From assembly GCA_963798845.1 (NCBI GenBank), contig CAWCUS010000001.1:704001-768000 (forward strand): a stretch of DNA of 64,000 nucleotides. Direction: 5' to 3'. This DNA is from an uncultured Gemmatimonadales bacterium. GTDB lineage: Bacteria; Gemmatimonadota; Gemmatimonadetes; Longimicrobiales; RSA9. Every line of letters starts with the position of its first letter. Positions within the stretch are counted from its first letter, which is position 1. The position numbers and the translations under genes were made by a program. The notes beneath the pieces were generated by a model that saw nothing but the letters and a program-made list of their open reading frames with translations, did no database searches and had not been told where the DNA came from. This document shows positions 1 to 36,969 of the stretch, piece after piece.

Positions 1-825
1 GTACTGCGCGGGATCGCGCTCATGGGCGTTGATCACGTCCAGCCCCCGCCAGTTCCAGAGCTGCATGTCCACCTGCCGGGGCCCATCCTGGTGGTAGCCC
101 GCGATGATCAGGCGGCCCCGGACCCGGGTCAGCCGCGCGGCCAGGTCCAGCGGTGCCTGCTTGCCCGTGGCCTCCACCACCACGTCGCACAGCGCGCCTC
201 CCGTCTCCTCCTCCACGGCCGCCACGGCAGAGTCCGGGGCCGACGCGTCCAGCGTCCGGAACGCGCCCACGCGCTCGGCCACGTCCCTGGCGTACTGCCG
301 CCTCGAGATCCCGATGACGCGCGCGCCCACGGATACCGCGAGCTGCGTCACCAGCGCACCCAGGAATCCGACTCCCACCACCGCCACGGTGCGACCCTCC
401 TCGATGCCACTGCGCTGGAACACGTTCATGGCGCACCCCAGCGGCTCGCCCGGGAAAGGCAGCGCGTCCAGCTCGGGAGGGAGTGGCACGACATCGGCCG
501 CCGGCACGGTGATCTCACCTGCGAACGCGTGGTCTCCAAGCGTCGCCACACGATCGCCTTTCCGCACGATCCGCACCTCGCGGCCCACGGCGACCACCAC
601 GCCCCAACCCTCGTGTCCGGGCTTCCCGGGCTCGAACGGGTAGTCGAACCACGGCGCACCTTCCCATGGGGCCAGGTTCGAGCCGCACACACCGCACCCC
701 TCGAGCCGGATCACCACGTCCCGCGGGCCCGGAGCCGGGAGCACGACGTCCTCCATCTCGACTCGCCCCGGCTCCACCAGCACCGCCGCACGCGTCACCG
801 ATGGCGCAGACCGCTCCATCTTCAT
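1..825 (-). CDS. Zinc-binding (MDR family) alcohol/sugar dehydrogenase, 3' end runs off the window
   Basis: Own translation (not in ORF track): MKMERSAPSVTRAAVLVEPGRVE..GCGVCGSN..GHEGWG..EPLGC..VVGVGFLG; GHE and GxGxxG motifs. Confidence 0.85.
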   Translation of the reverse strand, partial: MKMERSAPSVTRAAVLVEPGRVEMEDVVLPAPGPRDVVIRLEGCGVCGSNLAPWEGAPWFDYPFEPGKPGHEGWGVVVAVGREVRIVRKGDRVATLGDHAFAGEITVPAADVVPLPPELDALPFPGEPLGCAMNVFQRSGIEEGRTVAVVGVGFLGALVTQLAVSVGARVIGISRRQYARDVAERVGAFRTLDASAPDSAVAAVEEETGGALCDVVVEATGKQAPLDLAARLTRVRGRLIIAGYHQDGPRQVDMQLWNWRGLDVINAHERDPAQY

Positions 826-6459: not shown

Positions 6460-9270
6460 TCAGACGCCGGAGTCCGGGTCGCTCAGGTAGCCCACCGCCT
6501 CGTCCTGGTCGCCGTTCATGAGGACGCGGAGGATGCGCCCGTTGGCCACGGCGCGAACGTCGATGACGCGCAGCGCAGAGGCAACGTGGTCGAACTCGGG
6601 CAGCAGCTCGGAGAGCACACTGGGCGAGTCCCTGAAGAACGCTTCGCTGAAGCGGTTTTCCGGTTCATCGGGGTAGAGCGGCAGGTAGCGGATGTCCGCC
6701 TCCACCAGGTCCTGGAAGAAGTGGGTGCCGAACGAGAGGTCGGGGACGTAGCTCCCCTTCCGCCGGGCGATCTCGGCGAGCATGGCCGTGTTGTTGATGT
6801 CGGCGTACGTCACGCTGACGCCCAGGTGGATGTCGCCGCGGCTCCCCCAGCGTCCGGGCCCCATGAGGATGAAGCGGCGCCGGGGCAGGAGCTTGTTGAG
6901 GCGGCCCACGGCGCGCCCGACATCGAGGAGGTGCTTGCGCTCGGTCAGCTCGGCGTAGCCGTCGGGGTCTACATAGACCACGTGGGTGAGCTCCGGCGCG
7001 CTGCCGTTGGAGATGTGCCGGTGGGCAGTAAAAAGGACGCGCTCGTCGGCCAGGTCGCGCGGGATGAGCGCGCCGATCGCGCTCCCCGGCGTGGACTGGG
7101 GGCGACACTGGAGGAGGTAGAAGTTGTCGCCGTCGGAGGCGAACTCCAGGTCCACCGGCATGCCGAGGCGGGTCCCGAGCACGTCCAGGAGCGTGGCCAC
7201 CTGCGCCATGAACGGGGAGTCGGCGGTCAACCCCTCGAACGTGACCACGGCGTCCTCCTTCTCGAAGTCCACGCTCAGCCCGCGTGGCCGGCGGAGGCGG
7301 CCGTGCTCCAGGATCGACACCATCTTCTTCACCTGCGGCAGCGAGCGGCCGCACTCGCGAAGCAGGCGCTCCACGGGCACCGTCTCCAACTCGTTGGACT
7401 CGAGGTTGATGACGTCCATGAAGCGCGGCGCATAGCGAACCATCTCGTCCACCGTGGTGTTCACCCGCAGCCCCGGCTGGCGCGGCGCGAGCAGGACGGA
7501 GTAGTCGTCGCTGGTGCGGTCGACGGCGCGCGTGCCGAGTCCCGGGACCAGCCGCACCAGCCCGTCGTCCCGCCGGATCCGCGGCGACCACCGGAACTCG
7601 TTGTGGCTCAGCGCCACCCCGGAGTACACGGGGAGGAAGTAGGGCCCCACCCGCTTGCCCACCACCTCCTGGATCATGATCCCCATCTCCTCGTGGACGT
7701 CGAGGAGGCCGCGCGCCGCGCGGTACTCGATCGGGTCCGGGGCGAAAATGGAGGCGTACACCTCGGCGACGGCGTCCTGGAGCGCGCTCAGCCGCTCCGC
7801 CTTGCTCCCCTGGTTGGCCAGGAACAGGCTCTTGTATTTGCCGCTGAACGCCGACCCGGTCCGGTCCTCGAGCAGGCTCGAGCTACGCACGATGAGGGGC
7901 ACATCGCCCAGATCGTCCAGCGCCGCGGACAGCCCTTTCTCCAGCTCGGCCGGGAACGCCGCGCTCTTGAACACCTGCACCACGTGCGGATACTGCTGCC
8001 GCACCTGGTCGATTTCGAGGTACTTGTGGTCGTAGATGTCGTCCAGGTTGTTGTACCGGACGAAGGCCAGGACGGCGTCCGAGGCGACGTACCAGGTGCG
8101 CGGCACGCGCACGTTCGCCAGCACGCTCTGGAACTCGGGTGAGCTCTCCACCACGCGCTGCGCCAGGAACACGCCCGCGCTCTTCCCGCCGAGCCGGCCG
8201 TGGCTGCCGTGGGGGGCGAGGAGGTGACGGGCAAGGCGGTGGAAGTCGGCCACGTTCACGAGACCGCGCGCGGTGTTGATGAAGCCGATCTGGTCCGTGA
8301 AGAAGCGGCGCAGCAGCGCCACGCGCAGCATGATCTGCACCGAGTGCGGGAGCTCCGCCTCCTCGACGCCCAGCGCCTGGAAGCGCTCCAGCGCTTCCGT
8401 GATCGCCCCCAGCGACGATCCCTGGTCCTCGAGCAGATGGATCAGGAAGCTCGCTTTGTCCTGGCTGATCCACATCTGGATATGCCCGAGGATCTCGTCC
8501 TCCGGCAGGTGCTCCGCCGCCACCCGGAACACCTCGTCCGTCGGCGGCGATGCCGACCCGGGCGTCACCCGCGACAGCGGTCGGTTCTCGTCCAGATCCG
8601 GGTCAGGCGCCTCCTCCTTCGCCGCCCCGGGCACCAGCGCGTCCGCCTTCGCCACGCCCCGCCAGCGGAGGTGGTTCAGCATCTTGCGCGTGATCCACTC
8701 CACGAGCGCCGGGTCCGTGCGACGCAGGAAATCCACGATCACCCGCCACTTCGCCCGCCGCTCCTGCCCGAACCACTCCACGGTCCGGCTCCGGCGCAGC
8801 TCTCTGGCCTCCGCCATCTCGCGCCGGATCATGAAGAAGGCGAAGCGCTCGGCCAGCGCTCGGAGCAGCTGTTGCTCCTCTTTCAGGAAGGGCCCGTCGT
8901 CGGCCTCCGGGCGAGGCTCCGTGTAGAAGACGCTCAGCTCGCCCACGGTCTCGTCCCCGATCACGATCGGGGCGCGCTGGACCCACTGCGTCTCCCTTGA
9001 GCCGGGCGCGCGGAACTCACGGCCGCGCACCGTCAGCGTCGGCTGCATGACCTCCGGATGCTGCCAGCCCTCGGGGAGGGCCTCGAGCGCCCGTCGGAAC
9101 AGCTCGTCCTCGGGCTCGTTCCGGCTCAGGATGTCGTCCACCCGATAGAGACAGCTCAGCTCCTTCGCACGCTCCCGGAGCGCGCCGACGGACGAATCGT
9201 CCGTGACTCCGTCGCGGTCGTCGCCCTTCTGCGCCTCCGTCTCGCCGGAACGATGCTGCTCTTGGCTCAT
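6460..9270 (-). CDS. PEP/pyruvate-binding (PPDK N-terminal-like) domain protein with N-terminal GAF-like sensor module
   Basis: LRERAKELSCLY..PEGWQHPE..GPFLKEE N-terminus; GRLGGKSAG, LIVRSSSLLEDRTGSAFSGKY, GLGTRAVD, PGRWGS, SFGTHFFQDL; ATGA overlap with upstream gene. Confidence 0.85.
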   Translation of the reverse strand: MSQEQHRSGETEAQKGDDRDGVTDDSSVGALRERAKELSCLYRVDDILSRNEPEDELFRRALEALPEGWQHPEVMQPTLTVRGREFRAPGSRETQWVQRAPIVIGDETVGELSVFYTEPRPEADDGPFLKEEQQLLRALAERFAFFMIRREMAEARELRRSRTVEWFGQERRAKWRVIVDFLRRTDPALVEWITRKMLNHLRWRGVAKADALVPGAAKEEAPDPDLDENRPLSRVTPGSASPPTDEVFRVAAEHLPEDEILGHIQMWISQDKASFLIHLLEDQGSSLGAITEALERFQALGVEEAELPHSVQIMLRVALLRRFFTDQIGFINTARGLVNVADFHRLARHLLAPHGSHGRLGGKSAGVFLAQRVVESSPEFQSVLANVRVPRTWYVASDAVLAFVRYNNLDDIYDHKYLEIDQVRQQYPHVVQVFKSAAFPAELEKGLSAALDDLGDVPLIVRSSSLLEDRTGSAFSGKYKSLFLANQGSKAERLSALQDAVAEVYASIFAPDPIEYRAARGLLDVHEEMGIMIQEVVGKRVGPYFLPVYSGVALSHNEFRWSPRIRRDDGLVRLVPGLGTRAVDRTSDDYSVLLAPRQPGLRVNTTVDEMVRYAPRFMDVINLESNELETVPVERLLRECGRSLPQVKKMVSILEHGRLRRPRGLSVDFEKEDAVVTFEGLTADSPFMAQVATLLDVLGTRLGMPVDLEFASDGDNFYLLQCRPQSTPGSAIGALIPRDLADERVLFTAHRHISNGSAPELTHVVYVDPDGYAELTERKHLLDVGRAVGRLNKLLPRRRFILMGPGRWGSRGDIHLGVSVTYADINNTAMLAEIARRKGSYVPDLSFGTHFFQDLVEADIRYLPLYPDEPENRFSEAFFRDSPSVLSELLPEFDHVASALRVIDVRAVANGRILRVLMNGDQDEAVGYLSDPDSGV

Positions 9271-11018
9271 CCTGCGCCTTTCTGCTCCACCACGGGCCGA
9301 CGTACCACACCCCGCCTCGCCCGCCCATCCACCCGTACGCGGAGTGGCGCCGCCAGGCGCACGTGGCGCACGTGCTCGGTCTCTCGCACCACCGGCTGCC
9401 GCGCCAGCCATCCCCAGTCGATGGGGCGGCCGAGGGCGTGGCGCACCGTGAAGTACAGTACCCCGAAGCTGGAGAGGTTGTGAAAGAAGTGCGACCCCTG
9501 GCTCGGCTCCACGTCCATGTCGGGGAGCGTCGCCTCGACCAGGACCCGGGCGGAAGACACGTGGCTCCAGGACACGGGGATGCCGAGCCAGGGGTCCGAG
9601 CTGCCCCACCGCCCGAAGCCGATGAGCAGGCACTGCCGCCCCTCGTCGAGCAGCGCCGCGTTCGCCGCCGCCACCTCGCCCGCGATGAGCGACGTCCGCC
9701 TGGTCTCGAACCGGTCCGGCCGCACGTACACCACGTCCCGCAAGTCCTCGCGAACGCCGTTCCCCATCGCCGCCGTGGAGGCCAGCACGACGTCGTCGCC
9801 CTCCAGCTCGCCCACGTCCACCAACACCGCCTCACCCGGTGCGACCATCCGCCGGAGCTGCACCAGCCCGACGCGCATCCCTGGCGAGTTCGGGGTCGGC
9901 ATCGTCGCGGCCAGCTCGATCTCCACCGGCCCCTGCAGCGCCCGCCCGGACACGTCCAGCAGCCCCCGGATCACGGCGTTGAGCGGCCGCTCTCCCAGCT
10001 CCAGCAACGGCGCGAAAGTGAGCACCCTCGGGCCGTCCCGTCCGGTGCCCGCCCTCAGGCGGTCGGCGTCCGCGTCATACGTGGAGGCGAGATAGCGGAG
10101 GGAGCCGTCGGCTTCGGCGTCGGCGAGCGAGCCCTCCACCAGGTACTCCGTCTCCGCCAGCGGGTCGTACGCGGGCGGGCGACCCATGTTCACTGCCCAG
10201 AAGCGCGTCTGCGTCTCGGCCATGAGGCGCCGCACGGAAGCGAACGGCGCCGGCGCCTTCGGATGGCGAGGAGAGTACGTCCACACCACGCCGCCGTCGA
10301 CGATGGTCTTGCCCAGTCCCAGCGCCAGGTCCGCGACCCCGTCCTCCGGGCTGGCCTTCCCGATCGGATAGTAGCTGTACGACCTCGCCACGGCGGACAG
10401 CTCCGGATAGAACCGGGGGCCGTGGCGCGTCCCGACGATCTCCTGGATCATCACCGCCATCGACTCATCGCGGTCCGCCACTCCGATGGCGCGGCGGTAC
10501 GTGCGAGCGGCGGAGAAGTAGGTGGACGCGTACACGAACTTCACGGCCTCCGCCAGGCGCTGGAACCGGGCCCGGGGGTCCAGCTCCAGGTTCGGGATCA
10601 TCTTGGTCTCGTAGATCCCGGCGAACGGCTGGCCGAGCGCGTCCTCCAGCCGGCTGGACGAGCGGATGGCGAGCGGCCGGGTGGCCTCCTCCGCGACCGA
10701 CACCAGGTCTCCCAGGACCTCGCCCGGGAGGTTCGCCTGCTGGAACGCGTGCGCCACGCGTCGGTCGGAGAGCCCCGCGAGGGCCGCGGGGTCCAGATGA
10801 TTGCGCTCGAGGAAGGCGTCGAAGGAATCCGTCGCCAGCACCACCAGCCGGGGGATGGCGACCACGACCCCGGGGTAGGCGTCTTTCAGGTCGCCGGCGC
10901 CGGCCGCATGGGCGCGCAGCAGACCTTCCGCCTTCCCACCCAGGCCGCCTCCACCGATCCGGGAGAAAACATCCCCGGATCGGAAGAAGCGGCGATCGAA
11001 TGCGGGGACCAGCCCCAT
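9267..11018 (-). CDS. PEP/pyruvate-binding (PPDK N-terminal-like) domain protein
   Basis: IGGGGLGGKAEGL, LAIRSSSRLED..FAGIYET, LGLGKTIVDGG, GRWGSSDPWLGIPV, PSQGSHFFHNL. Confidence 0.85.
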   Translation of the reverse strand: MGLVPAFDRRFFRSGDVFSRIGGGGLGGKAEGLLRAHAAGAGDLKDAYPGVVVAIPRLVVLATDSFDAFLERNHLDPAALAGLSDRRVAHAFQQANLPGEVLGDLVSVAEEATRPLAIRSSSRLEDALGQPFAGIYETKMIPNLELDPRARFQRLAEAVKFVYASTYFSAARTYRRAIGVADRDESMAVMIQEIVGTRHGPRFYPELSAVARSYSYYPIGKASPEDGVADLALGLGKTIVDGGVVWTYSPRHPKAPAPFASVRRLMAETQTRFWAVNMGRPPAYDPLAETEYLVEGSLADAEADGSLRYLASTYDADADRLRAGTGRDGPRVLTFAPLLELGERPLNAVIRGLLDVSGRALQGPVEIELAATMPTPNSPGMRVGLVQLRRMVAPGEAVLVDVGELEGDDVVLASTAAMGNGVREDLRDVVYVRPDRFETRRTSLIAGEVAAANAALLDEGRQCLLIGFGRWGSSDPWLGIPVSWSHVSSARVLVEATLPDMDVEPSQGSHFFHNLSSFGVLYFTVRHALGRPIDWGWLARQPVVRETEHVRHVRLAAPLRVRVDGRARRGVVRRPVVEQKGAG

Positions 11019-15876: not shown

Positions 15877-16060
15877 CCCCTCTGCGAGGGCGAAGCCCGA
15901 CCCCCTCTGCGAGGCCGAATGGCCGAGCCCCTCTGCGAGGCCGAATGGCCGAGCCCCTCTGCGAGGCCGAATGGCCGAGCCCCTCTGCGAGGGCGAAGCC
16001 CGAGCCCCTCTGCGAGGCCGAATGGCCGAGCCCCTCTGCGAGGCCGAATGGCCGAGCCCC
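15877..16060 (+). repeat. Tandem array of 7 palindromic units (25-26 nt), same family as the arrays at 29.8 and 30.4 kb
   Basis: 2x CCCCTCTGCGAGGGCGAAGCCCGA(C/G) and 5x CCCCTCTGCGAGGCCGAATGGCCGAG, starting at the base after the stop codon. Confidence 0.95.
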
Positions 16061-27802: not shown

Positions 27803-29711
27803 AGGCGGTCTCGGTTCCGAGGCCTACCAGGCGGAGGAACGCCGGGTCCGTGTGCAGCCCGTCGAACACCCAGTCCCGGGCCACCACGGCGGTGTCGGGA
27901 AGCTGGACCGCCAGCGCCATCCGGAGCAACCGGACTGCGCTGGCGCGGTCGTCCATCAGCAGTGCGACCTGCGCCTCGTCGTAGGCCAGCCCCGGCTGCG
28001 GCTCCGGGCCGCGTGCGCGGATAACGATCGCCCGGGCGCTGTCCGCCAGCCCGGCCCTCGCCGCCACCTTGGCCACCTGCATGATCGCCCACGCGCGGTA
28101 CGGCTGGCGCTGCGACGACGGCACCGTCGCCACCAGCGAGTCGACCAGCGCCCAGGCGCGGTCCACGTCGGGAGCCACCTGGGGGAAGGTCCCGAGCACG
28201 GTGAGGTCCAGCTGGATGAACCCGGAGTTGTCCGGGAACCGTGACCGGCCCTCGGCGACCTGCGTGATGATGGCGTCGTCAGGGCCGAACTGCAGCCCGC
28301 TGTAAGCGGCGGCGAAAAGCGCGTTCTCCTCCAGGTCGAGGAACTCGTCGGCGGCGATTGCGTGGTCGGCCGCGAGCTTCGCTTCCTCGAAGCGGCCCTG
28401 GTCCGTGAGCAGCTCGCTGAGGGCCTGCCACGCCCGGGCACTGCGGTCGTCGCGCTCCACGGCCAGCCGAAGGTCGGCCTCCGCCCTGGAACGGAGCGAG
28501 GCAAGCTCCGACCCCGAGGCACCCGTCGCCTGCGCCATCCGGACGAGCCCCCGCAGCTCCAGCGCCGCGGCGGTGTCCACAGATACGGCCAGCGCTCGCT
28601 CGGCGTGCGCCAGCGCCTGTGTGCACCAGGTCGGCGAGGGTGCCGTGGGGCTGCCCACGATGGAAGCCAGGTCGAGGGCGACGTGGCCACGCAGGAGCGC
28701 GGGCTGGTCCCAGGTGGGGTCCAGGTGCCCGGCCTTCGCCAGGAGCGTGTCGGCGCGCAGCAGCAGCGGCAGCCCGGCCTCCGCGTCCTCGCTGCGCAGG
28801 GCCCAGAAGTCCGTGTACAGGCGCTGGGCACGGCCCCAGAGCGCCCACGCCTCGTCGCTGGTGTTGCCCGCGCGCCGACGGCGGAGATCGAGCTCCCTCC
28901 CGAGGACCTTCCGGAGTGCGCGCGAGACCCCGCCCACGAGGCTGTCCTGGAGCGCGATCCAGGCGCCCACCGGCGCGTCCACGTAATCGCTGTGCAGGTG
29001 GCTCAGGTCGGAGCCGCGGATGAGCTGGAACGTGACCCGGATCTTCCCGTCCGGCCCCGGCGCAACGCTCCCTTCCACGATGCTTCCCGCCCGGAGCTCC
29101 GCCACGACCCTGTCCATGTCCACACGCTCGCCACGGAACCGCTTCACCCCGTTGCGCGAGATCACGTCCAGCGACCGGACCTGCCCGAGCTCGTGGATCA
29201 GCGCTTCGGTCAGCGCGTCGGCCAGGTACGCATATTCGCCGTTCGGCGTGTAGTCGTCGAAGTAGAGCACGGCCACGCGCGCGGGGTCGAGCGACACCGG
29301 GGCGATCACCGCCGCCGCATTCCCGGCGGAGGCCGCTTCCGACGTGCGCGGCCCCCAGACCTGCCAGCCGGTCACGCCCAGCGCCACGCTCAGCAGCACC
29401 ACGAGCAGCACGGCCAGCACGCGCCCACCGACCCCCAGCAGCTCTGAAAACCCCCGCCCCCGGTCCGCTCTAACCCCCTCGGTGGTGACCTGGAGCGCCC
29501 ACGCGAGGACCACGACGATCGGGAATCCCACGGCCGAGACCACCACCAGCAACGGGAGCAGCCATGACGGGAACTCCAGCGCCGACACCAGGATCGTGTC
29601 CACGAACTGGAGCACCGCGTACGCCCCGACCAGGTACAGGATGACCATCCTGGAAACGCGGCGGCGGCGCAGCTCGTCGAGAAATGACCGAAGACCCGAT
29701 CCAATGGGCAT
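27774..29711 (-). CDS. Membrane protein with TolB-N-like domain and TPR repeats
   Basis: ELRRRRV..GFPIVVVLAW TM segment; RVAVLYFDD..LADALTEALIHEL..VISRNGV; helical TPR-like C-terminus. Confidence 0.8.
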   Translation of the reverse strand: MPIGSGLRSFLDELRRRRVSRMVILYLVGAYAVLQFVDTILVSALEFPSWLLPLLVVVSAVGFPIVVVLAWALQVTTEGVRADRGRGFSELLGVGGRVLAVLLVVLLSVALGVTGWQVWGPRTSEAASAGNAAAVIAPVSLDPARVAVLYFDDYTPNGEYAYLADALTEALIHELGQVRSLDVISRNGVKRFRGERVDMDRVVAELRAGSIVEGSVAPGPDGKIRVTFQLIRGSDLSHLHSDYVDAPVGAWIALQDSLVGGVSRALRKVLGRELDLRRRRAGNTSDEAWALWGRAQRLYTDFWALRSEDAEAGLPLLLRADTLLAKAGHLDPTWDQPALLRGHVALDLASIVGSPTAPSPTWCTQALAHAERALAVSVDTAAALELRGLVRMAQATGASGSELASLRSRAEADLRLAVERDDRSARAWQALSELLTDQGRFEEAKLAADHAIAADEFLDLEENALFAAAYSGLQFGPDDAIITQVAEGRSRFPDNSGFIQLDLTVLGTFPQVAPDVDRAWALVDSLVATVPSSQRQPYRAWAIMQVAKVAARAGLADSARAIVIRARGPEPQPGLAYDEAQVALLMDDRASAVRLLRMALAVQLPDTAVVARDWVFDGLHTDPAFLRLVGLGTETASTTPSPPRE

Positions 29712-29797
29712 GGGGAGTCGTCTTCGGGTAGGGGGAAGCCATGGCGCCCGTATGCACTATGTCGGGGGAGGGGGTGCGGGGACAAGGGGGGTCTTGG

Positions 29798-29990
29798 CTC
29801 GGGCTTCGCCCTCGCAGAGGGGCTCGGCCCCTGCGGGGCCTCGCAGAGGGGCTCAGCCCCTGCGGGGGCTTCGCAGAGGGGCTCGGGCTTCGCCCTCGCA
29901 GAGGGGCTCGGCCCCTGCGGGGCCTCGCAGAGGGGCTCGGGCTTCGCCCTCGCAGAGGGGCTCAGCCCCTGCGGGGGCTTCGCAGAGGGG
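29798..29990 (-). repeat. Left array: 7 palindromic units (25-30 nt), reverse orientation
   Basis: Minus-strand units CCCCTCTGCGA-[GGGC GAA GCCC | GGCCCC GCA GGGGCC | AGCCCCC GCA GGGGCT]-GAG. Confidence 0.95.
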
Positions 29991-30372
29991 CGGGGCCGGG
30001 CAGGTGGGGGGGGGAGCGGGTGAAGGCGTTGATCAGGCGGCGCAGGTCCAGCTTCACGTCCTTCAGGAGGCGGAGCGCGCAGAGGAGATCCTCGTTGGCG
30101 ACGGCGCCGACCGCCGTGAGGCTGCGGAGGGCGTGCTCGCATTCCACGGCCGAGCGGTGAGCATAACGATAGAGGCGGACCTTGTCGCCGGTGCTCATCT
30201 CGCCCAGGCCCTCGCCCACGTTGGTCACGACCGACGCCGCCGAGCGTTGCAGGTGATCGTTCGCCGGCTGCCTTGCCACCGCCGCCCGCCCTCCGAGCGA
30301 CTCCGCCATTCGGAGGACCTTTCGCGCCAGCCTGGCCACCCGCGGCTCCCGCGACCGCCCGCTTCTCACCAT
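29962..30372 (-). CDS. Four helix bundle protein (TIGR02436 / 23S rRNA IVP-like family)
   Basis: DHLQRSAASVVTNVGEG..DKVRLYRYAHRSAVEC..LRRLI matches the QL.RA..S...NIAEG..F...A.GS..E pattern. Confidence 0.8.
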   Translation of the reverse strand: MVRSGRSREPRVARLARKVLRMAESLGGRAAVARQPANDHLQRSAASVVTNVGEGLGEMSTGDKVRLYRYAHRSAVECEHALRSLTAVGAVANEDLLCALRLLKDVKLDLRRLINAFTRSPPHLPGPAPLRSPRRG

Positions 30373-30417
30373 GCTCCCACTCTACCCCTCCCCCCCGGCC
30401 ACAGCCATGGCTCGATG

Positions 30418-30642
30418 CGCCTCTGCGAGGCGAAGCCCGAACCCCTCTGCGAGGCGAAGCCCGAGCCCCTCTGCGAGGGCGAAGCCCGAGCCCCTCTGCG
30501 AGGCGAAGCCCGAGCCCCTCTGCGAGGGCAAAGCCCGAGCCCCTCTGCGAGGGCAAAGCCCGAGCCCCTCTGCGAGGGCGAAGCCCGAGCCCCTCTGCGA
30601 GGGCGTAGCCCGAGCCCCTCTGCGAGGGCGAAGCCCGAGCCC
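30418..30642 (+). repeat. Right array: 9 palindromic units (24-25 nt), forward orientation
   Basis: CCCCTCTGCGA-G(G)GC-[GAA|AAA|GTA]-GCCC-GAG tandem units. Confidence 0.95.
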
Positions 30643-30774
30643 ACCCACCCCCCACCCCTTTCCCCGCCCCGCCCCCGCGCCCATCATCGAGGCGCCCCGC
30701 TCGCCATTGACCCGAGATGAACAGTTGCGCCCGCCGGCGGTCCGGGGGGGCGCCGCAGGAGCGACCGAAGGCCG

Positions 30775-32862
30775 ATGCCCGACCAGGATGAACGATACGG
30801 GGCGGTCCGCCCGCCGGAGGAGCTGAATCCTCGGCGGGAGGCGGCGCTCGACTTTCGCCAGCGAGCGCTCGGCGACATGACGCCGGCCGACTATGACGCC
30901 ATCGGCTTCCTCGCCGGGCTCGAGGTCCACCAGCAGCTTCTGACCACTTCGAAGCTCTTCTGCCGATGCCCTGCAGGCCGGCGTTTCGAGCACGCCGATG
31001 CCGAGGTGCTGCGCCACATGCGGCCCACGCTCAGCGAGCTGGGCGAGTACGACGGCACGGCGCTGATGGAGTTCAAGACGCGCAAGGAGATCGTCTACCT
31101 GCTGGAGCGGCGCACCGTCTGCACGTACGAGATGGACGACACGCCGCCGTTCCCGGTGGACGAGGAAGCGGTCCGCATCGCGGTCGAGCTGGCCATGCTC
31201 TTCGACCTGAAGCTGGTCTCGGAGCTCCACGTCATGCGCAAGCAGTATCTGGACGGCTCGATCCCCACGGGTTTCCAGCGCACGGCCATGGTCGGGCTCG
31301 GCGGCAGCGTCCCGTTCCGGGTCCCCGAGCTCGGCGTGGACCGGCCGCTCACCATCCGGCAGCTCTCGCTGGAGGAGGACTCCTGCCGCGAGGTCAGCGA
31401 CGTGGGCCACCGCATCGTGTTCCGCGCCGACCGCCTGGGCGTCCCCCTCACCGAGGTGGTCACGGAGCCCGAGCTGCGCACGCCCTGGGAGCTTCAGGCC
31501 GCAGGCCGCCTCATCGCAAGCGCCGCCCGTGCCACCGGCCACGTCCGCCGCGGCCCCGGCGCCGCCCGTCAGGACGTGAACGTCTCGGTCGCCGGCGGCA
31601 GGCGGGTGGAGATCAAGGGCGTGCCGCGCCACCGCGGGCTCCCGCTCCTCGTCCACATCGAGGCATTCCGGCAGCTCGCCCTGCTGCGCGTGCAGGCCGA
31701 GCTGGAGCGACGCGGCGTCACCACCGCCCTGCTCCCGCTGCCCGGCGACGATGCGCCGGCGTGGGAATCGTCGACGCTGGTGGCGGACGCGTCCGGCACC
31801 CTCGCCCGCACCGGCCACACCCCGCTGCGCAGTGCGCTGGACCGGGGCGAGACCGCCGTGGCCGTGCGGCTCCCGGGCTTCGCCGGACTGCTCGACCAGC
31901 CGACGCAGACGGGCATCCCCTTCGGTCGTGAGCTGGCGGAGCGGGTGCAGGTCATCGCGTGCCCGGTCCACCGTCCGTTCATGGCTTGGAACGGCAGTGC
32001 CGTCCGGGGTGGACTGGAGCGGGCGACGACGCTGTCGCACGCCCATTGGAGGGAGGTGGAGCGCGCGCTCGGCGCGGACACCGGTGACGCCATCGTCGTG
32101 GTCTGGGCGCCGGAGGCCGACGCGGACACCGCGGCGAGAGAGATCCTGATCCGCGCGCGCGAGGCGCTGGCGGGCGTCCCCGCCGAGACGCGCCAGGCCC
32201 GCGCCGACGGCACCACCGGCTTCGAGCGGATCCTCCCCGGCCCCGACCGAATGTACCCTGACACGGACACGCCGCCGCTCCCGATCTCCGACGTGCTGGT
32301 GGCTGAGGTCGTCGCCGAACTGCCCGAGACGCCGTGGGCACGCGCGGACCGCTACGTCGGCCTGGGGCTCGACCCCGGTGCGGCGCAGCGCCTCTCCGTG
32401 GCACCCTGGGCCGACCTGTTCGACGACGTCCGGCCCGCAGCCGGCGACACGGCCCGGACCGTGGCCCGGGCGCTCCAGCACCGCCTCCCTTTCCACTCCC
32501 GAAGACACGCCGCGCCGCCCCCGTCCGCCGACCGCCTCGCCACCGTGGTCCGAGCGCTCGAGTCCGGGGTGCTGCTCCCCGGCGCCATTGAGCCGGCGCT
32601 GGACGCGCTCGTGCTGGAGCCGGAGACGAGGGCCGGAGCGGTCGTCGCCCGCTTCCGCGCGTCGCCCGATGCGAGGAAGGCCGTGGCGTCGCGGATCGAG
32701 GAAGCGGCCGCTCGGGCGCGCAACGAGGGCCCGCCCGATCCCGAGGCGGCGCTGCGCCGCGCCATGGGCGAGGTCATGCGCGGAGTCCGGGGGCGGGTGG
32801 ACGCCGCGGACGTGCGCCGACGCGTCGTCGCCGCGCTCGGATTCGAAGTGGAGGCGGCGTGA
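30775..32862 (+). CDS. gatE: Glu-tRNA(Gln) amidotransferase subunit E (archaeal type)
   Basis: GLEVHQQL..KLFCRC, LRPTLSELGEYD-like, MRKQYLDGSIPTGFQRT, LEEDSCR, RLGVPLTE, RQDVNVSV..RVEIKGV, GVPAETR, LPGPDRMYPDTD. Confidence 0.9.
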   Translation: MPDQDERYGAVRPPEELNPRREAALDFRQRALGDMTPADYDAIGFLAGLEVHQQLLTTSKLFCRCPAGRRFEHADAEVLRHMRPTLSELGEYDGTALMEFKTRKEIVYLLERRTVCTYEMDDTPPFPVDEEAVRIAVELAMLFDLKLVSELHVMRKQYLDGSIPTGFQRTAMVGLGGSVPFRVPELGVDRPLTIRQLSLEEDSCREVSDVGHRIVFRADRLGVPLTEVVTEPELRTPWELQAAGRLIASAARATGHVRRGPGAARQDVNVSVAGGRRVEIKGVPRHRGLPLLVHIEAFRQLALLRVQAELERRGVTTALLPLPGDDAPAWESSTLVADASGTLARTGHTPLRSALDRGETAVAVRLPGFAGLLDQPTQTGIPFGRELAERVQVIACPVHRPFMAWNGSAVRGGLERATTLSHAHWREVERALGADTGDAIVVVWAPEADADTAAREILIRAREALAGVPAETRQARADGTTGFERILPGPDRMYPDTDTPPLPISDVLVAEVVAELPETPWARADRYVGLGLDPGAAQRLSVAPWADLFDDVRPAAGDTARTVARALQHRLPFHSRRHAAPPPSADRLATVVRALESGVLLPGAIEPALDALVLEPETRAGAVVARFRASPDARKAVASRIEEAAARARNEGPPDPEAALRRAMGEVMRGVRGRVDAADVRRRVVAALGFEVEAA

Positions 32863-34250
32863 TGAGCGCGACGGAGACCGGCGGCTATCGCGGACCGGCC
32901 TGGGCGGCCATGCAGCGCTTCGGCATCACCGTGTGGTGCGAAGTGCGGGCGCGCACCACGCGCGGCGAGTTCATCGGACTGGTGCTGCCGCGCTCCGAGA
33001 CCAGCGACGACCTCCACCTCGTCCTGAAGCTCGGCTCCGGCTACAACGTCGGCCTCCGCCACGACACGATCCTCGAGCTGGAGAAGCTCGGGTATCGCGA
33101 GGCCCACTACAGGATCCCCGAGAAAGCCTTCCCCGTCACGCCCGACCTCCCGCGCGTCAAGCTGCTCGGCACGGGCGGCACCATCGCATCCCGGCTCGAC
33201 TACCGCACGGGCGCCGTCATACCCGCGTTCACCCCCGGCGAGCTGTACGGCTCGGTCCCGGAGCTGGCCGACGTGTGCAATCTGGAGACGGAGAAGCTGT
33301 TCGGCGTCTTCAGCGAGAACATGGGGCCCGAGCAGTACATGGTGCTGGCCGAGAAGATCGGCGAGGCCATCCGCGACGGCTACGACGGCGTGATCGTGGG
33401 TCATGGCACGGATACCATGCACCACACGGCCGCGGTCCTCAGCTTCATGGTCCAGGACCCGCCCGTCCCGGTGATCCTCGTGGGCAGCCAGCGCTCCTCC
33501 GACCGCCCGTCCTCCGACGCGGCCCGCAACCTCATCAACGCCGCATGGGCCGCCGGCCACGGGCCCATCGCCGAGGTCATGGTGTGCATGTTCGGCCCCA
33601 CCTCCGACGTGTACAACCTGCTCCACCGCGGCACGCGCGTGCGGAAGATGCACAGCTCCGTGCGAAGCACGTTCCGCACCCTGGGCGACATCCCGCTCGC
33701 CATGGTGGAGCGCGGCGCGCTCACCCCGCTCAAGGACGACTGGAAGCCCCGCCGCGACGATCGCGACGTCACCATCCGGCCCGCGTTCGACCCCCGGGTC
33801 ACCCTCGTCTACTACTATCCGGGGATGCAGCCGGACGTGATCGACGCGCTGGTGGGGTGCGGCTACCGCGGCATCGTGCTGGCCGGCACCGGCCTCGGCC
33901 ACGTCAACCGTCTCATCTATCCGGCGCTGGAGCGGGCGAGGGACGCGGGCGTGCAGGTCTACATGACGCTCCAGACGTTCTGGGGCTTCGTTCAGATGCA
34001 CGTCTACGAGACCGGCCGCGAGATCCTGGAGCTGGGCGTGGTGCCGCTCGCCAACATGCTGCCCGAAGTGGCCTACGTGAAGCTCGGCTGGGCGCTGGGC
34101 CTCCATCCCGATGACCCCGCCGCCGCGCGGGCCCTCATGACCGCCACGCTCGCCGGCGAGATGACCGAGCGCGAGCCGCACGACGGCTACCTCATCCTCC
34201 AGGGTGGCGTCCCGGAGGTTCAGGCGGCGCTCTCCGGCTTGTGGAGATGA
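32862..34250 (+). CDS. gatD: Glu-tRNA(Gln) amidotransferase subunit D (archaeal type, asparaginase-like)
   Basis: N-terminal VLKLGSGYNVGL domain; TGGTIASRLDYRTGAV, HGTDTM, GSQRSSDRPSSD, RGTRVRKMHSS, GTGLGHV, MLPEVAYVKL; TGATG overlap with gatE. Confidence 0.92.
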   Translation: MSATETGGYRGPAWAAMQRFGITVWCEVRARTTRGEFIGLVLPRSETSDDLHLVLKLGSGYNVGLRHDTILELEKLGYREAHYRIPEKAFPVTPDLPRVKLLGTGGTIASRLDYRTGAVIPAFTPGELYGSVPELADVCNLETEKLFGVFSENMGPEQYMVLAEKIGEAIRDGYDGVIVGHGTDTMHHTAAVLSFMVQDPPVPVILVGSQRSSDRPSSDAARNLINAAWAAGHGPIAEVMVCMFGPTSDVYNLLHRGTRVRKMHSSVRSTFRTLGDIPLAMVERGALTPLKDDWKPRRDDRDVTIRPAFDPRVTLVYYYPGMQPDVIDALVGCGYRGIVLAGTGLGHVNRLIYPALERARDAGVQVYMTLQTFWGFVQMHVYETGREILELGVVPLANMLPEVAYVKLGWALGLHPDDPAAARALMTATLAGEMTEREPHDGYLILQGGVPEVQAALSGLWR

Positions 34251-34392
34251 GCGGAAGGGCGCGAAGAACCTGATGAGGGTGTCGGAATGGCGGTTCACTC
34301 GCTCCCTCCGGGGGCGCCACCGAGGTGGTCCGGCGCACCGTTCCCGGCTAAGTTCCTGGCCGTTCAAGGCCCCGGCAACGAAGAACGGACCG

Positions 34393-36969
34393 ATGACGAA
34401 TACATGGCACCCGCGGGCCGGCCGCGCTGGCCTGGCCTCGCTTCTCGTTCTGGCCGCGTGCGCGGCGCCCGTCACCCCGTCCCCGGAGCCGGCGACGCCC
34501 GGCGCGGCAGGGGCGGATGAGGCGGCATGGGACACCGTGTCCCGGACGCTCCCCACCGGTGTGACGCTGGATCCGGCGGGTGACGCGGTCCCCGTGGGCA
34601 GCTTTCCGCTGGCCTTCACGCTCGCGCCAGACCCACGGTACGCGGTGACGATCCTGAGCGGGTGGCGTGAGCAGGGCCTGGAGGTGGTGGACCGGGAGGC
34701 CGGGCGCGTGGTGCAGAGAGTGGCGCAGCCCGCGGCCTTCCTGGGCCTCGCCTTCTCTCCCGACGGCCGCACGCTGTTCGCGTCGGGCGGAAACCAGGAC
34801 GTGATCTACCGCTACGACTGGGGCGCCGACCTGCTGACCTTCCGCGACAGCATCGTCCTCGCCGCGCCGAACCGGTCCGTCGGCCACCTCCCCGGCGAGC
34901 CCATGACGCCGGGCCGGCCGCAGCAGGTCGGGCTTCACTTCCCCGCCGGCATCGCCCTCTCCCCCGACGGGGATCGGCTCTATGTCGCGGAGAACCTGGG
35001 GGACCTGCTCGCGGTGGTGGACGTGGGTAGCGGCCGCGTGGTCCAGCGCTTCCCGGCCGGGCGCTACCCGTACGGCGTGGTGGTCGCGCCGGACGGGACG
35101 GTGTACGTCTCGGCGTGGTCGCAGTCCACGGTGGCTGTGTTCGTGCCGACGGAGGACGGGCTCGAGCCCGATGGCGCCATCATCGTGGGACGCCACCCGT
35201 CGGCCATGGTGCTGAGCGAGGATGGGAGCCGCCTCTTCGTGGCGTCGGCCAGCACCGACCGCGTGGCCGTGGTGGACACGCGCGAGCGCCGGCTGATCAC
35301 GGAGCTGCTCGACCCGGCGCCGCACGGGCCCGGCGAGGGGAGCACGCCGAACGCGCTGGCCCTGTCGAAGGACGGTCGGCGGCTCTTCGTCGCCGAAGCG
35401 GACAACAACGCCGTGGCCGTCTTCGACCTCTCCTCCCGCACCGCCGGGCTGCGCTCAGGGCTGGGGCGCGACCTTCTTGCGGGGCGGATCCCTGCCGACT
35501 GGTACCCAACGGACGTCGAGATCCGCGGCGACACCCTCCTCACGCTGTCGGCCAAGGGGCTCGGCACGCGGCCCAACCCCGAGCTGCCGCAGCCCGGGCA
35601 GGCGCGCCGGCTCAGGCAGGTGGAGGAGAACTACACGCTGGGGCAGCTGGACGGCACGCTCCGCACTGTCCCGGGCGGCGCTGCGCTGCGCGGCGGCGAC
35701 CTGCGCCGCATGACCGCTCGCGTCGTGGCGGCGAACCACTGGGACCTCCCGCGCCGGGGCGCCTCCGCGGCCTACCCGCCGTTCGAGCACGTGATCTACG
35801 TGATCAAGGAGAACCGGACGTACGACCAGGTGTTCGGTGACATGCCGGAGGGCGACGGCGACTCTTCGCTGGTCTTCTTCCCGCGCGAGGTCTCGCCGAA
35901 TCACCACGCCCTGGCCGACCGCTTCGGTCTGTTCGACCGCTTCTTCGTGAACGCGGAGGTGAGCGCGGACGGGCACAACTGGTCCACCGCCGCCTACGCG
36001 AGCGACTACGTGGAGAAGACGGTCCCGTCCAACTACGCCGGGCTCCGCCCCTCGTACGACTACGAGGGCACGAACCGCGGCTTCGCCAACATCCCGCCGG
36101 AAGGCGAGGACGTCGCCGAGCCATCGCAGGGCTACATCTGGGACCTGGCCAACCGCGCGGGCATCACCTTCCGCAACTACGGCGAGTTCGTCATCCCGGA
36201 GGACGTGGATCTGGACGACCCAATGCCGGAGGGGTACCGCGGCGTGAAGCCGTTCCTCGCCGTGCACACCAACCCGGACTACGCCGGCTTCGACATGAAC
36301 ATCCCGGACCAGGACCGCGCCGACGTCTTCCTGCGCGACCTCCAGGAGTTCGAGCGCACGGGGGAGATGCCGCAGCTCATGATCCTGCGGCTCCCCAACG
36401 ACCACACGGCGGGTGGCCGGGCGGGCGCGCCCACGCCGGAGGCGTACATGGCGGACAACGACCTGGCTCTCGGCCGCATCGTCGAGGCCGTGTCCCGCTC
36501 TCGGTTCTGGAAGAGCACCGTCTTCTTCATCCTGGAGGACGACGCCCAGAACGGCCCGGACCACGTGGACTCCCACCGCTCGCCGCTGCTGGTGGTGTCC
36601 GCGTACGGGCGCCCGGGCGTGAGCCACCGGTTCGCCAACACGACGGACGTCATCGCCACCATGTCGGACATCCTGGGCATGGGGAGTCTCTCCCAGTTCG
36701 ACCACTACGGCCGCCCGTTGCGCGGCATCTTCGCGGACCGACCGGACCTGGAGCCGTACACCGCGCTGGTCCCCGCCGTCGACCTGGACGAGCGCAACGC
36801 CATCGACAACCCGGGCGCCGACGCCTCCCGCCACATCGACCTCCGATTCGAGGACAGCGTCGACGACATCCTCTTCAACCGGATCCTGTGGGCCATGATC
36901 AAGGGGCCGGACGTGCCCTACCCCGGGACCACGCGCATGCCCGTCCTCGAATGGCAGAGGTCGCGCTGA
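34393..36969 (+). CDS. YncE-like beta-propeller / phosphoesterase (alkaline phosphatase-like) lipoprotein
   Basis: Lipobox LAAC; repeated SPDG propeller blades; HVIYVIKENRTYDQVFGD, SADGHNW, LPNDHT, EDDAQNGPDHVDSHRS. Confidence 0.88.
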   Translation: MTNTWHPRAGRAGLASLLVLAACAAPVTPSPEPATPGAAGADEAAWDTVSRTLPTGVTLDPAGDAVPVGSFPLAFTLAPDPRYAVTILSGWREQGLEVVDREAGRVVQRVAQPAAFLGLAFSPDGRTLFASGGNQDVIYRYDWGADLLTFRDSIVLAAPNRSVGHLPGEPMTPGRPQQVGLHFPAGIALSPDGDRLYVAENLGDLLAVVDVGSGRVVQRFPAGRYPYGVVVAPDGTVYVSAWSQSTVAVFVPTEDGLEPDGAIIVGRHPSAMVLSEDGSRLFVASASTDRVAVVDTRERRLITELLDPAPHGPGEGSTPNALALSKDGRRLFVAEADNNAVAVFDLSSRTAGLRSGLGRDLLAGRIPADWYPTDVEIRGDTLLTLSAKGLGTRPNPELPQPGQARRLRQVEENYTLGQLDGTLRTVPGGAALRGGDLRRMTARVVAANHWDLPRRGASAAYPPFEHVIYVIKENRTYDQVFGDMPEGDGDSSLVFFPREVSPNHHALADRFGLFDRFFVNAEVSADGHNWSTAAYASDYVEKTVPSNYAGLRPSYDYEGTNRGFANIPPEGEDVAEPSQGYIWDLANRAGITFRNYGEFVIPEDVDLDDPMPEGYRGVKPFLAVHTNPDYAGFDMNIPDQDRADVFLRDLQEFERTGEMPQLMILRLPNDHTAGGRAGAPTPEAYMADNDLALGRIVEAVSRSRFWKSTVFFILEDDAQNGPDHVDSHRSPLLVVSAYGRPGVSHRFANTTDVIATMSDILGMGSLSQFDHYGRPLRGIFADRPDLEPYTALVPAVDLDERNAIDNPGADASRHIDLRFEDSVDDILFNRILWAMIKGPDVPYPGTTRMPVLEWQRSR

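Follow-up and report, generated by a model that had tools for sequence, protein, structure and literature searches.

How an enzyme regarded as archaeal comes to be encoded in a bacterial chromosome, and what it may do there, is the question raised by a 64,000-nucleotide stretch of the genome of an uncultured Gemmatimonadales bacterium (assembly GCA_963798845.1, contig CAWCUS010000001.1, positions 704,001 to 768,000; hereafter the window, all positions being counted from its first letter). It carries adjacent genes for GatE and GatD, the subunits of the amidotransferase GatDE. This enzyme has been called an “archaeal signature protein” (PMC2330236, 2008), said to occur “exclusively in archaea” (PMC2811023, 2009) and described as archaea-only in the reviews PMC8007984 (2021) and PMC9499178. 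The lack of glutaminyl-tRNA synthetase (GlnRS) in archaea has been explained by co-evolution of GatDE with a tRNA-Gln carrying an A1-U72 pair (PMC2330236, PMC9499178). An earlier note on this DNA had read the pair as an intact archaeal-type operon transferred into the lineage. Our analysis showed that the GatDE operon is real and intact, that it is neither an artefact nor a private archaeal import, and that it belongs to a bacterial clan of wide distribution, which has sequence signatures of its own.

The pair was confirmed to be of the GatDE type, not of the GatB/AnsA type. GatE passed the models NF003107, narrowly (461.3 bits against a cut-off of 456), and TIGR00134 (380 against 319.55), while failing all GatB models (49-128 bits against cut-offs of 315-680; the best, 127.8 against 338). 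Pfam GatB_N matched GatE over residues 47-508 (146.6 bits). GatD passed TIGR02153 (478.5 against 324) and NF003217 (470 against 310), failed the AnsA equivalog NF006998 (133.4 against 376) and carries, besides both asparaginase domains, the N-terminal domain GatD_N (PF18195, 40.1 bits against 25.7) that the earlier note had described. When PDB sequences were ranked, the archaeal structures 1zq1 and 2d6f came first for both subunits, with 288.7 and 276.1 bits for GatE (best GatB, 66.7) and 375.2 and 372.6 bits for GatD on 1zq1_A and 2d6f_A (best plain asparaginase, 154.7). These alignments span nearly the full length of both proteins (GatE residues 39-680 on 1zq1_C). GatE residues ~313-455 align with 1zq1_C and 2d6f_C, whereas the GatB alignments stop near residue 312, which bears out the GatE features, insertion included, noted earlier. 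GatE was modelled with AlphaFold from a 40-sequence alignment (pLDDT 91.2, pTM 0.89), and the best fold matches of the model were 1zq1_C and 2d6f (target TM 0.79-0.81), followed by GatB chains. Weak matches to AspRS chains, expected for an AspRS-like insertion, were also obtained, and the model is all-helical over residues 506-688. PF02938 (GAD) is precomputed on some close GatE relatives; PF02637, also precomputed on relatives, was not reported on the window GatE at E<=1e-3.

In GatD, the asparaginase motifs TGGTIAS, HGTDTM and RKMH are intact, as had been noted, and presumably supply the catalytic residues. The blocks around them (GTGGTIASR, HGTDTM and VRKMH) are letter-identical to those of 1zq1_A and 2d6f_A. 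An asparaginase-type catalytic Thr along with a triad of Thr, Lys and Asp is given as a feature of GatD (PMC2330236). There is next to no chance that the pair is a divergent gatB beside an ordinary type I asparaginase gene: such a misidentification could appeal to the cradle domain, which GatE has in common with GatB, and to the broad type I asparaginase subfamily model, which GatD passes (357.9 against 260.5), but the GatB and AnsA equivalog scores lie far below their cut-offs, the insertion and GatD_N are present, and the PDB ranking places GatE and GatD chains far above GatB and asparaginases. The grouping with GatB and ordinary AnsA that the earlier note had allowed for was therefore not found.

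Both genes are intact and lie on the same strand, exactly where they had been placed (Table 1). They are coupled at the stop/start junction GCGGCGTGATGAGC, where the gatE TGA shares 1 nucleotide with gatD if the latter starts at ATG, or 4 nucleotides if it starts at GTG; the GatD of the protein database has 462 amino acids, that is, the ATG-start form. Scans of positions 29700-34700 for promoters and terminators gave 0 and 0 matches. The host-like composition reported earlier was also recovered. The G+C content (GC) at 30-34 kb is 0.724-0.725, in a window that ranges from 0.688 to 0.772 and is ~71% throughout, and the third-position GC of the two genes (0.91 and 0.89) falls among the values of the other coding open reading frames (ORFs; 0.85-0.95).

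The distribution of bacterial GatDE, on which the earlier note had not ventured a judgement, turned out to be very wide. A profile-free search with GatE of 1.84 billion cluster representatives gave 2793 matches at E<=1e-3 and 577 at E<=1e-30. When one genome of each GTDB species was scanned for a pattern based on the 40-sequence alignment, at least 601 stretches matched, of which 597 encode a GatE relative. All locus counts given below rest on the best 80 of these 597 (L numbers). According to their record titles, these 80 loci are all bacterial; together with the bacterial window, they contradict the restriction of GatDE to archaea. By NCBI phylum they belong to Bacteroidota (29), Ignavibacteriota (7), Gemmatimonadota, Planctomycetota and Acidobacteriota (6 each), Myxococcota, Cloacimonadota, Fermentibacterota, Bacillota and Pseudomonadota (2 each), and Lentisphaerota, Thermotogota, Zixibacteria, Rhodothermota, Krumholzibacteriota and Chlorobiota (1 each), with 10 unplaced; they thus come mainly from FCB-group phyla, plus Planctomycetota, Acidobacteriota and Myxococcota. 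A single locus (L078) is from an isolate, Perlabentimonas gracilis M08_MB. Five third-party metagenome-assembled genomes (MAGs) titled Eubacteriales (two), Rickettsiales, Hyphomicrobiales and Thermotogae (L009, L018, L022, L035 and L071) have a GatE that falls among FCB-type sequences, reflecting either unreliable labels or further transfers; we place no reliance on these titles.

Among the best 120 matches listed for each protein, from searches that each drew at least 8000 candidates, the organism-named nearest relatives were from Gemmatimonadota in 6 of 6 cases for GatE (Gemmatimonadota, Gemmatimonadales and Longimicrobiales MAGs) and in 4 of 4 for GatD. The best 120 GatE matches are at least 62% identical and the best 120 GatD matches 80-100% identical, so the pair is common in Gemmatimonadota. 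Since the GC of the 80 loci spans 30-74%, each gatED copy has the composition of its host, and because the gatE-gatD unit recurs across loci of such different composition, a chimeric join with archaeal DNA, which the earlier note had considered, is excluded.

Trees of GatE gave a consistent picture. A FastTree of 120 rows (114 representatives of 580-800 amino acids from the best 150, the window GatE and 5 organism-named Gemmatimonadota proteins) was split 41 to 79 with support 100. A second tree of 142 rows comprised 68 complete locus proteins and the window GatE on the one hand and 73 archaeal-type sequences on the other, 12 loci with a truncated or fragmented gatE being omitted. Its 69 bacterial and 73 archaeal-type rows are divided by one branch (support 100, length ~0.46). 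IQ-TREE (LG+G4, short search; 32 bacterial and 30 other rows) recovered the same split (SH-aLRT 100). Inside the bacterial clan, the window GatE groups with 6 Gemmatimonadota loci in a group of 7 (support 97-100). The claim that the pair is “archaeal-type” and was transferred into this lineage thus had to be given up: GatE sits inside a Gemmatimonadota group of a purely bacterial clan set off by a branch of support 100, and any transfer must be older than the phylum. The trees are unrooted and without an outgroup, neither GatB nor a plain asparaginase being available for this in the window or any of the 80 loci; they show the two-clan topology only, and the direction of a transfer cannot be told from them.

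Several observations identify the other clan as archaeal. The archaeal PDB GatE chains score 551 and 509 bits on its member P0313. Their scores fall to 325 and 319 with a basal member of the bacterial clan and to 289 and 276 with the window GatE. The Atlas neighbours of a second member, P0281, are clusters that are 100% archaeal. For a third, P0289, 20 of 20 organism-named rows among the best 120 relatives are archaeal (Njord-, Odin-, Heimdall-, Baldr-, Hod- and Promethearchaeota, Thermoprotei, Bathy- and Verstraetearchaeota, and Pyrohabitans). Running counter to this label, the top Atlas cluster of P0289 is only 62% Archaea, with Fermentibacterota the commonest phylum. A few bacterial sequences may therefore lie inside the archaeal-type clan, and this cluster may represent a second, archaeal-type GatE in some bacteria, or bin contamination. 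In the bacterial clan, the 5 rows of Planctomycetota make up a single group, as do the 5 of Acidobacteriota (support 100 for each), and Bacteroidota show at least five label changes on starred branches of the 142-row tree. As judged from this one protein, inheritance plus some transfer among bacteria is suggested. We consider a recent archaeal import, or an assembly chimera, extremely improbable. Nothing was found in its favour, its sole basis being the textbook restriction of GatDE to archaea; against it stand GC and third-position GC values equal to those of the flanks, the Gemmatimonadota affiliation of the organism-named nearest relatives, and the position of GatE in the trees.

Conservation of the two proteins is strong where catalysis is expected. 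Across 40 bacterial and archaeal-type sequences, 55 GatE columns are invariant, 45 of them in the first part of the cradle, and the window GatE keeps all 55. Identity to the window proteins by tblastn is 61-84% for GatD (main segment, 66 loci with gatD) and 36-64% for GatE, across phyla. Together with the intact GatD blocks, these values point to an enzyme under strong constraint that probably performs tRNA-dependent amidotransferase chemistry. The regions predicted to face the tRNA differ between the clans. A short, positively charged loop of archaeal GatE adjoins the 1-72 pair of the tRNA in the complex (PMC2811023). The window GatE has this loop (residues 252-270), reading V-R-R-G-P-G-A-A-R-Q-D at 257-267. 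Residues G260, G262, R265 and D267 are invariant (a G-x-G...R-x-D frame), and between them the bacterial clan has A (89%) followed by A (46%) or G (33%), whereas the archaeal clan has T (79%) followed by I (87%). The loop thus reads G-x-G-A-(A/G)-R in the former and G-x-G-T-I-R in the latter.

Analysis of the gene environment could give clues regarding function. The position of gatD was judged in 69 of the 80 loci, the other 11 ending less than 1.5 kb from gatE. In 58 of these 69, gatD lies on the same strand within 120 nucleotides of gatE, and 31 of the 58 have a stop-start overlap of 1-8 nucleotides. In the rest, gatD is farther off or fragmented (7), upstream on the other strand (1) or not in the sequence available (3). 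An apparent overlap of 292 nucleotides in L040 was taken for a frameshift or assembly error. In five MAG loci (L023, L030, L032, L040 and L080), gatE or gatD appears split, shortened or frameshifted, by pseudogene formation or assembly error. An all-against-all BLAST of 902 crudely called ORFs placed every gene family other than GatE and GatD in 11 or fewer of the 80 loci; such counts are lower bounds, since this way of calling ORFs fails where GC is high.

Such recurrent neighbours as there are concern glutamate, glutamine and tRNA charging. In three Gemmatimonadales/Gemmatimonadota loci (L004, L005 and L006), gltX, for glutamyl-tRNA synthetase (GluRS), lies divergently upstream on the minus strand and is followed by gatE, gatD and glnS, for GlnRS, on the plus strand, so that the enzymes of both routes to Gln-tRNA(Gln) are encoded at one locus. 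Of the three, only L005 and L006 have a tRNA-Ser(gct) gene separating gltX from gatE. The three glnS products score 685-743 bits on TIGR00440 (cut-off 425.8), and the gltX products of L004 and L005 score 438 and 453 on TIGR00464 (cut-off 289.95); the gltX of L006 is cut by the contig end and has a Pfam tRNA-synt_1c match only. The GlnRS of these loci lack a YqeY tail, matching the GlnRS/YqeY-fusion model over positions 11-560 of 769 only. L007, the sister of the Gemmatimonadota group, encodes a 797-amino-acid GlnRS-YqeY fusion (6831-9224; 1131 bits against 681) directly upstream of gatE-gatD. In total, the Gemmatimonadota-type group has 7 loci, and glnS adjoins gatED in 4. The GluRS encoded beside gatED in L004 and L005 is short. 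It aligns in two pieces with most solved bacterial GluRS, skipping ~40 residues (around 98-138 of 8i9i_A), and in one piece with the 448-residue solved GluRS 8jpv_A; that of L005 scores 314 bits on Thermotoga maritima GluRS2, about equal to other bacterial GluRS structures. In three other phyla, the gene directly upstream of gatE, on its own strand, is a type I glnA, namely in Fermentibacteria (L076), Planctomycetota (L011) and Krumholzibacteria (L023), and L012 has glnA 3.8 kb upstream of gatE. In the close relatives L017 and L029, an NtrC-type regulator and its kinase precede gatE, and a dicarboxylate/amino-acid symporter gene follows gatD in L002 and L003.

Table 1. Coordinates of the gatE-gatD pair in the window and of neighbouring genes in related loci (L numbers; positions within each locus).
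Feature	Position	Strand	Details
gatE, kinase/amidotransferase, tRNA-binding subunit	30775..32862	+	695 aa, ATG start; ORF, NCBIfam, PDB alignment, model
GatE cradle (catalytic) domain, first part, ~residues 39-312	30889..31710	+	Pfam GatB_N covers 47-508; boundaries approximate
GatE-specific AspRS-like insertion, ~residues 313-455, missing from GatB	31711..32139	+	PDB alignments, fold matches; boundaries approximate
GatE cradle end (~456-510, RMYPDTD block), then helical and YqeY-like tail (~511-695)	32140..32859	+	1zq1_C alignment, model
Stop/start overlap GTGATG	32859..32864	+	gatE TGA 32860-32862; gatD ATG 32862 or GTG 32859
gatD, asparaginase-type glutaminase subunit	32859/32862..34250	+	463 aa from GTG, 462 aa from ATG
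GatD domains	GatD_N residues 36-77; Asparaginase N 99-288; Asparaginase C 313-427		Pfam
gltX-gatE-gatD-glnS clusters	L004:8442-16006; L005:8367-15089; L006:2-6037		
gltX next to gatED	L005:8367-9692; L004:8442-9812	-	441-456 aa (short)
Type I glnA	L076:113-1678; L011:176-1591; L023:8541-9998		L076, 482 bits vs 429

The linkage to gltX, glnS and glnA in relatives points to a role in Glu/Gln-tRNA charging. The reading that we prefer, with roughly even confidence, is that gatE and gatD encode a working GatDE-type tRNA-dependent amidotransferase of a distinct bacterial branch, which most likely acts beside GlnRS and is not the sole route to Gln-tRNA(Gln); this function is putatively assigned from homology and genomic context. 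By homology to the archaeal enzyme, GatD would hydrolyse glutamine or asparagine and free ammonia, while GatE would bind Glu-tRNA(Gln), phosphorylate the gamma-carboxyl of the attached glutamate and amidate the activated glutamate to give Gln-tRNA(Gln). In Gemmatimonadota, GatDE would then provide a second, glutamate-fed path to Gln-tRNA(Gln), parallel to the direct GlnRS route; alternatively, it could clean up Glu-tRNA(Gln) made by GluRS. Table S1 of PMC4206432 (2014), in which gatDE is not scored, lists one gatCAB, one asnS and one glnS for Gemmatimonas aurantiaca T-27, and gatCAB, asnS and glnS as present in Ignavibacterium album and Melioribacter roseus. The glnS genes beside the pair in four relatives and the glnS and gatCAB of G. 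aurantiaca argue that GatDE is not the only route in the phylum.

Several results weigh against this reading. In a tblastn search at E<=1e-3, neither glnS nor gltX was found within the 64 kb of the window, and a Pfam scan of 36 ORFs gave no aminoacyl-tRNA synthetase or further Gat domain; it is thus from relatives that we extrapolate a co-existence with GlnRS to this very genome. Neither the window nor the 80 loci yielded a tRNA-Gln gene, the six tRNA genes detected being for other amino acids. The tail motif GXXAXGX, which replaces GatB's Lys-rich motif and has been linked to the way archaeal GatDE discriminates between substrates (PMC2811023), is not conserved: the window GatE has PEAALRR, and among the 69 bacterial rows every residue stays below 35% at the G, A and G positions, the commonest at the first being P (28%). 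The motif is loose even in the 73 archaeal-type rows (G 58%, A 63%, G 32%). Moreover, if GlnRS and GatCAB are both there, a third enzyme making this product would seem superfluous, and another role is favoured. The changes in loop and tail would fit a changed tRNA identity set, presumably with U1-A72, the pair used by GlnRS and bacterial GatCAB (PMC2330236). For the window itself, we infer the substrate of GatDE, its co-existence with GlnRS and a re-tuned tRNA recognition.

In a rival reading, the genome has neither GlnRS nor a Glu-specific GatCAB. GatDE, with the same enzymology, would then be essential and, with a non-discriminating GluRS, form the only way to Gln-tRNA(Gln). The very strong conservation of GatD and the lack of glnS in the window agree with this, and Rhodothermus marinus, a cultured relative of one carrier lineage, is listed with no glnS (Table S1, PMC4206432). 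However, the window is a small part of a genome, glnS adjoins the pair in over half of the Gemmatimonadota-type loci, and G. aurantiaca has both glnS and gatCAB (PMC4206432), so that we regard a sole route as rather unlikely. An equally modest share of our belief goes to a repurposed enzyme that keeps the kinase/amidotransferase chemistry for another target (a different aminoacyl-tRNA, a single tRNA-Gln isoacceptor or a tRNA-dependent amidation outside translation), or whose main part is to bind tRNA as a partner of GlnRS or GluRS. This would account for the apparent redundancy with GlnRS and GatCAB in cultured relatives (PMC4206432), the clan-specific loop and lost tail motif, and the GlnRS of L004-L006 without the YqeY tail that L007 keeps. 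Yet no catalytic column has been lost, the equivalog models of both subunits are passed, and recurrent neighbours that all belong to Glu/Gln/tRNA charging fit the canonical substrate.

Comparison with known systems places the working-amidotransferase reading in context. Archaeal GatDE (Methanothermobacter thermautotrophicus, 2d6f with tRNA-Gln; Pyrococcus abyssi, 1zq1) is alike in its two subunits, domain order, fold, catalytic columns and GatD blocks. The window pair differs in its bacterial host and separate clan, in a GatE identity of only 33-35% to the solved chains (fold alignment), in A-(A/G) for T-I in the loop and the unconserved tail, in the linkage to glnS seen in bacterial relatives, archaea being without GlnRS (PMC9499178), and presumably in acting on a U1-A72 and not an A1-U72 substrate. 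Bacterial GatCAB (for example, Staphylococcus aureus 3ip4) performs what would be the same overall reaction on Glu-tRNA(Gln). Its GatB is a paralogue of GatE with the cradle and YqeY-like tail in common (PMC2330236), but GatCAB has an amidase-type GatA plus GatC in place of the asparaginase-type GatD, and lacks the AspRS-like insertion. The Deinococcus-type GlnRS with a C-terminal YqeY (NF011291) is the best model for the glnS of L004-L007; only L007 matches it in full length, tail included, and the gene belongs to these relatives, with none in the window. The glutamine transamidosomes of Helicobacter pylori and T. maritima, made of GluRS2 or a non-discriminating GluRS with GatCAB, offer a precedent in which a dedicated GluRS supplies an amidotransferase of Glu-tRNA(Gln), although the amidotransferase partner there is GatCAB.

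Taken jointly, these data allow a wider reading, which we offer tentatively. Bacterial GatDE could be a second lineage as old as the FCB radiation or older, going back to a very early inter-domain transfer or to an ancestor with both amidotransferases of which it is a relic, and not one archaeal leak. Its tRNA-facing loop and tail would have been re-tuned to bacterial tRNA-Gln, and the gltX-gatED-glnS module would let direct and indirect routes draw on one tRNA. Nitrogen status may act as the switch between them, as glnA and NtrC-type regulators adjoin the pair in several phyla.

In public annotation, the bacterial genes are already called GatD and GatE. Among the papers listed by full-text literature searches, in which subscription journals are largely uncovered, there was no report of GatDE in Gemmatimonadetes, Bacteroidetes or other bacteria. 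What appears to be unreported is thus the bacterial GatDE clade and its genomic context, not a new protein family. Clustered in some genomes with GluRS and GlnRS, the clan is a natural test of the proposed co-evolution of GatDE with A1-U72. From it one could learn whether a single tRNA-Gln can serve both GatDE and GlnRS, and which residues determine recognition of the first base pair and the D-loop, and it bears on the presence of GatDE in the common ancestor of both domains. It also offers cultured or culturable bacterial sources of the enzyme, P. gracilis being an isolate that carries it.

The other genes of the window are bacterial, in agreement with the earlier description of the surroundings. 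They encode a transglycosylase with SLT and LysM domains, an outer-membrane beta-barrel protein, MacB/FtsX, an MFS pump with an EmrA-like adaptor, peptidases and dehydrogenases. The TolC named in that description was not recovered, no Pfam or NCBIfam match in the window bearing this name, and an Omp85-family match of one window gene was weak and under the cut-off. Upstream of gatE lies a gene for a four-helix-bundle (“23S rRNA intervening sequence”) protein (29962-30372, minus strand), and downstream of gatD a gene for a beta-propeller/phosphoesterase protein; the pair thus lacks the gltX, glnS, glnA, NtrC-type regulator and symporter neighbours of its relatives. The window contains no tRNA gene and no Rfam family at gathering thresholds. 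Two minus-strand ORFs (6460-9633 and 9267-11018), each with a PPDK_N (phosphoenolpyruvate-utilising, ATP-binding) domain, overlap by ~370 nucleotides when read from their first start codons, probably owing to a mis-called upstream start. Finally, a 25-nucleotide GC-rich repeat occurs at 29796-29991, 30420-30642 and 15879-16006. It forms a 9-copy tandem array immediately upstream of gatE, is reversed on the far side of the four-helix-bundle gene and has two more copies after the Omp85-like gene. When up to 3 mismatches are allowed it has 11 matches, and 100 shuffles gave 0; the unit has the look of a family of repeats dispersed between genes.

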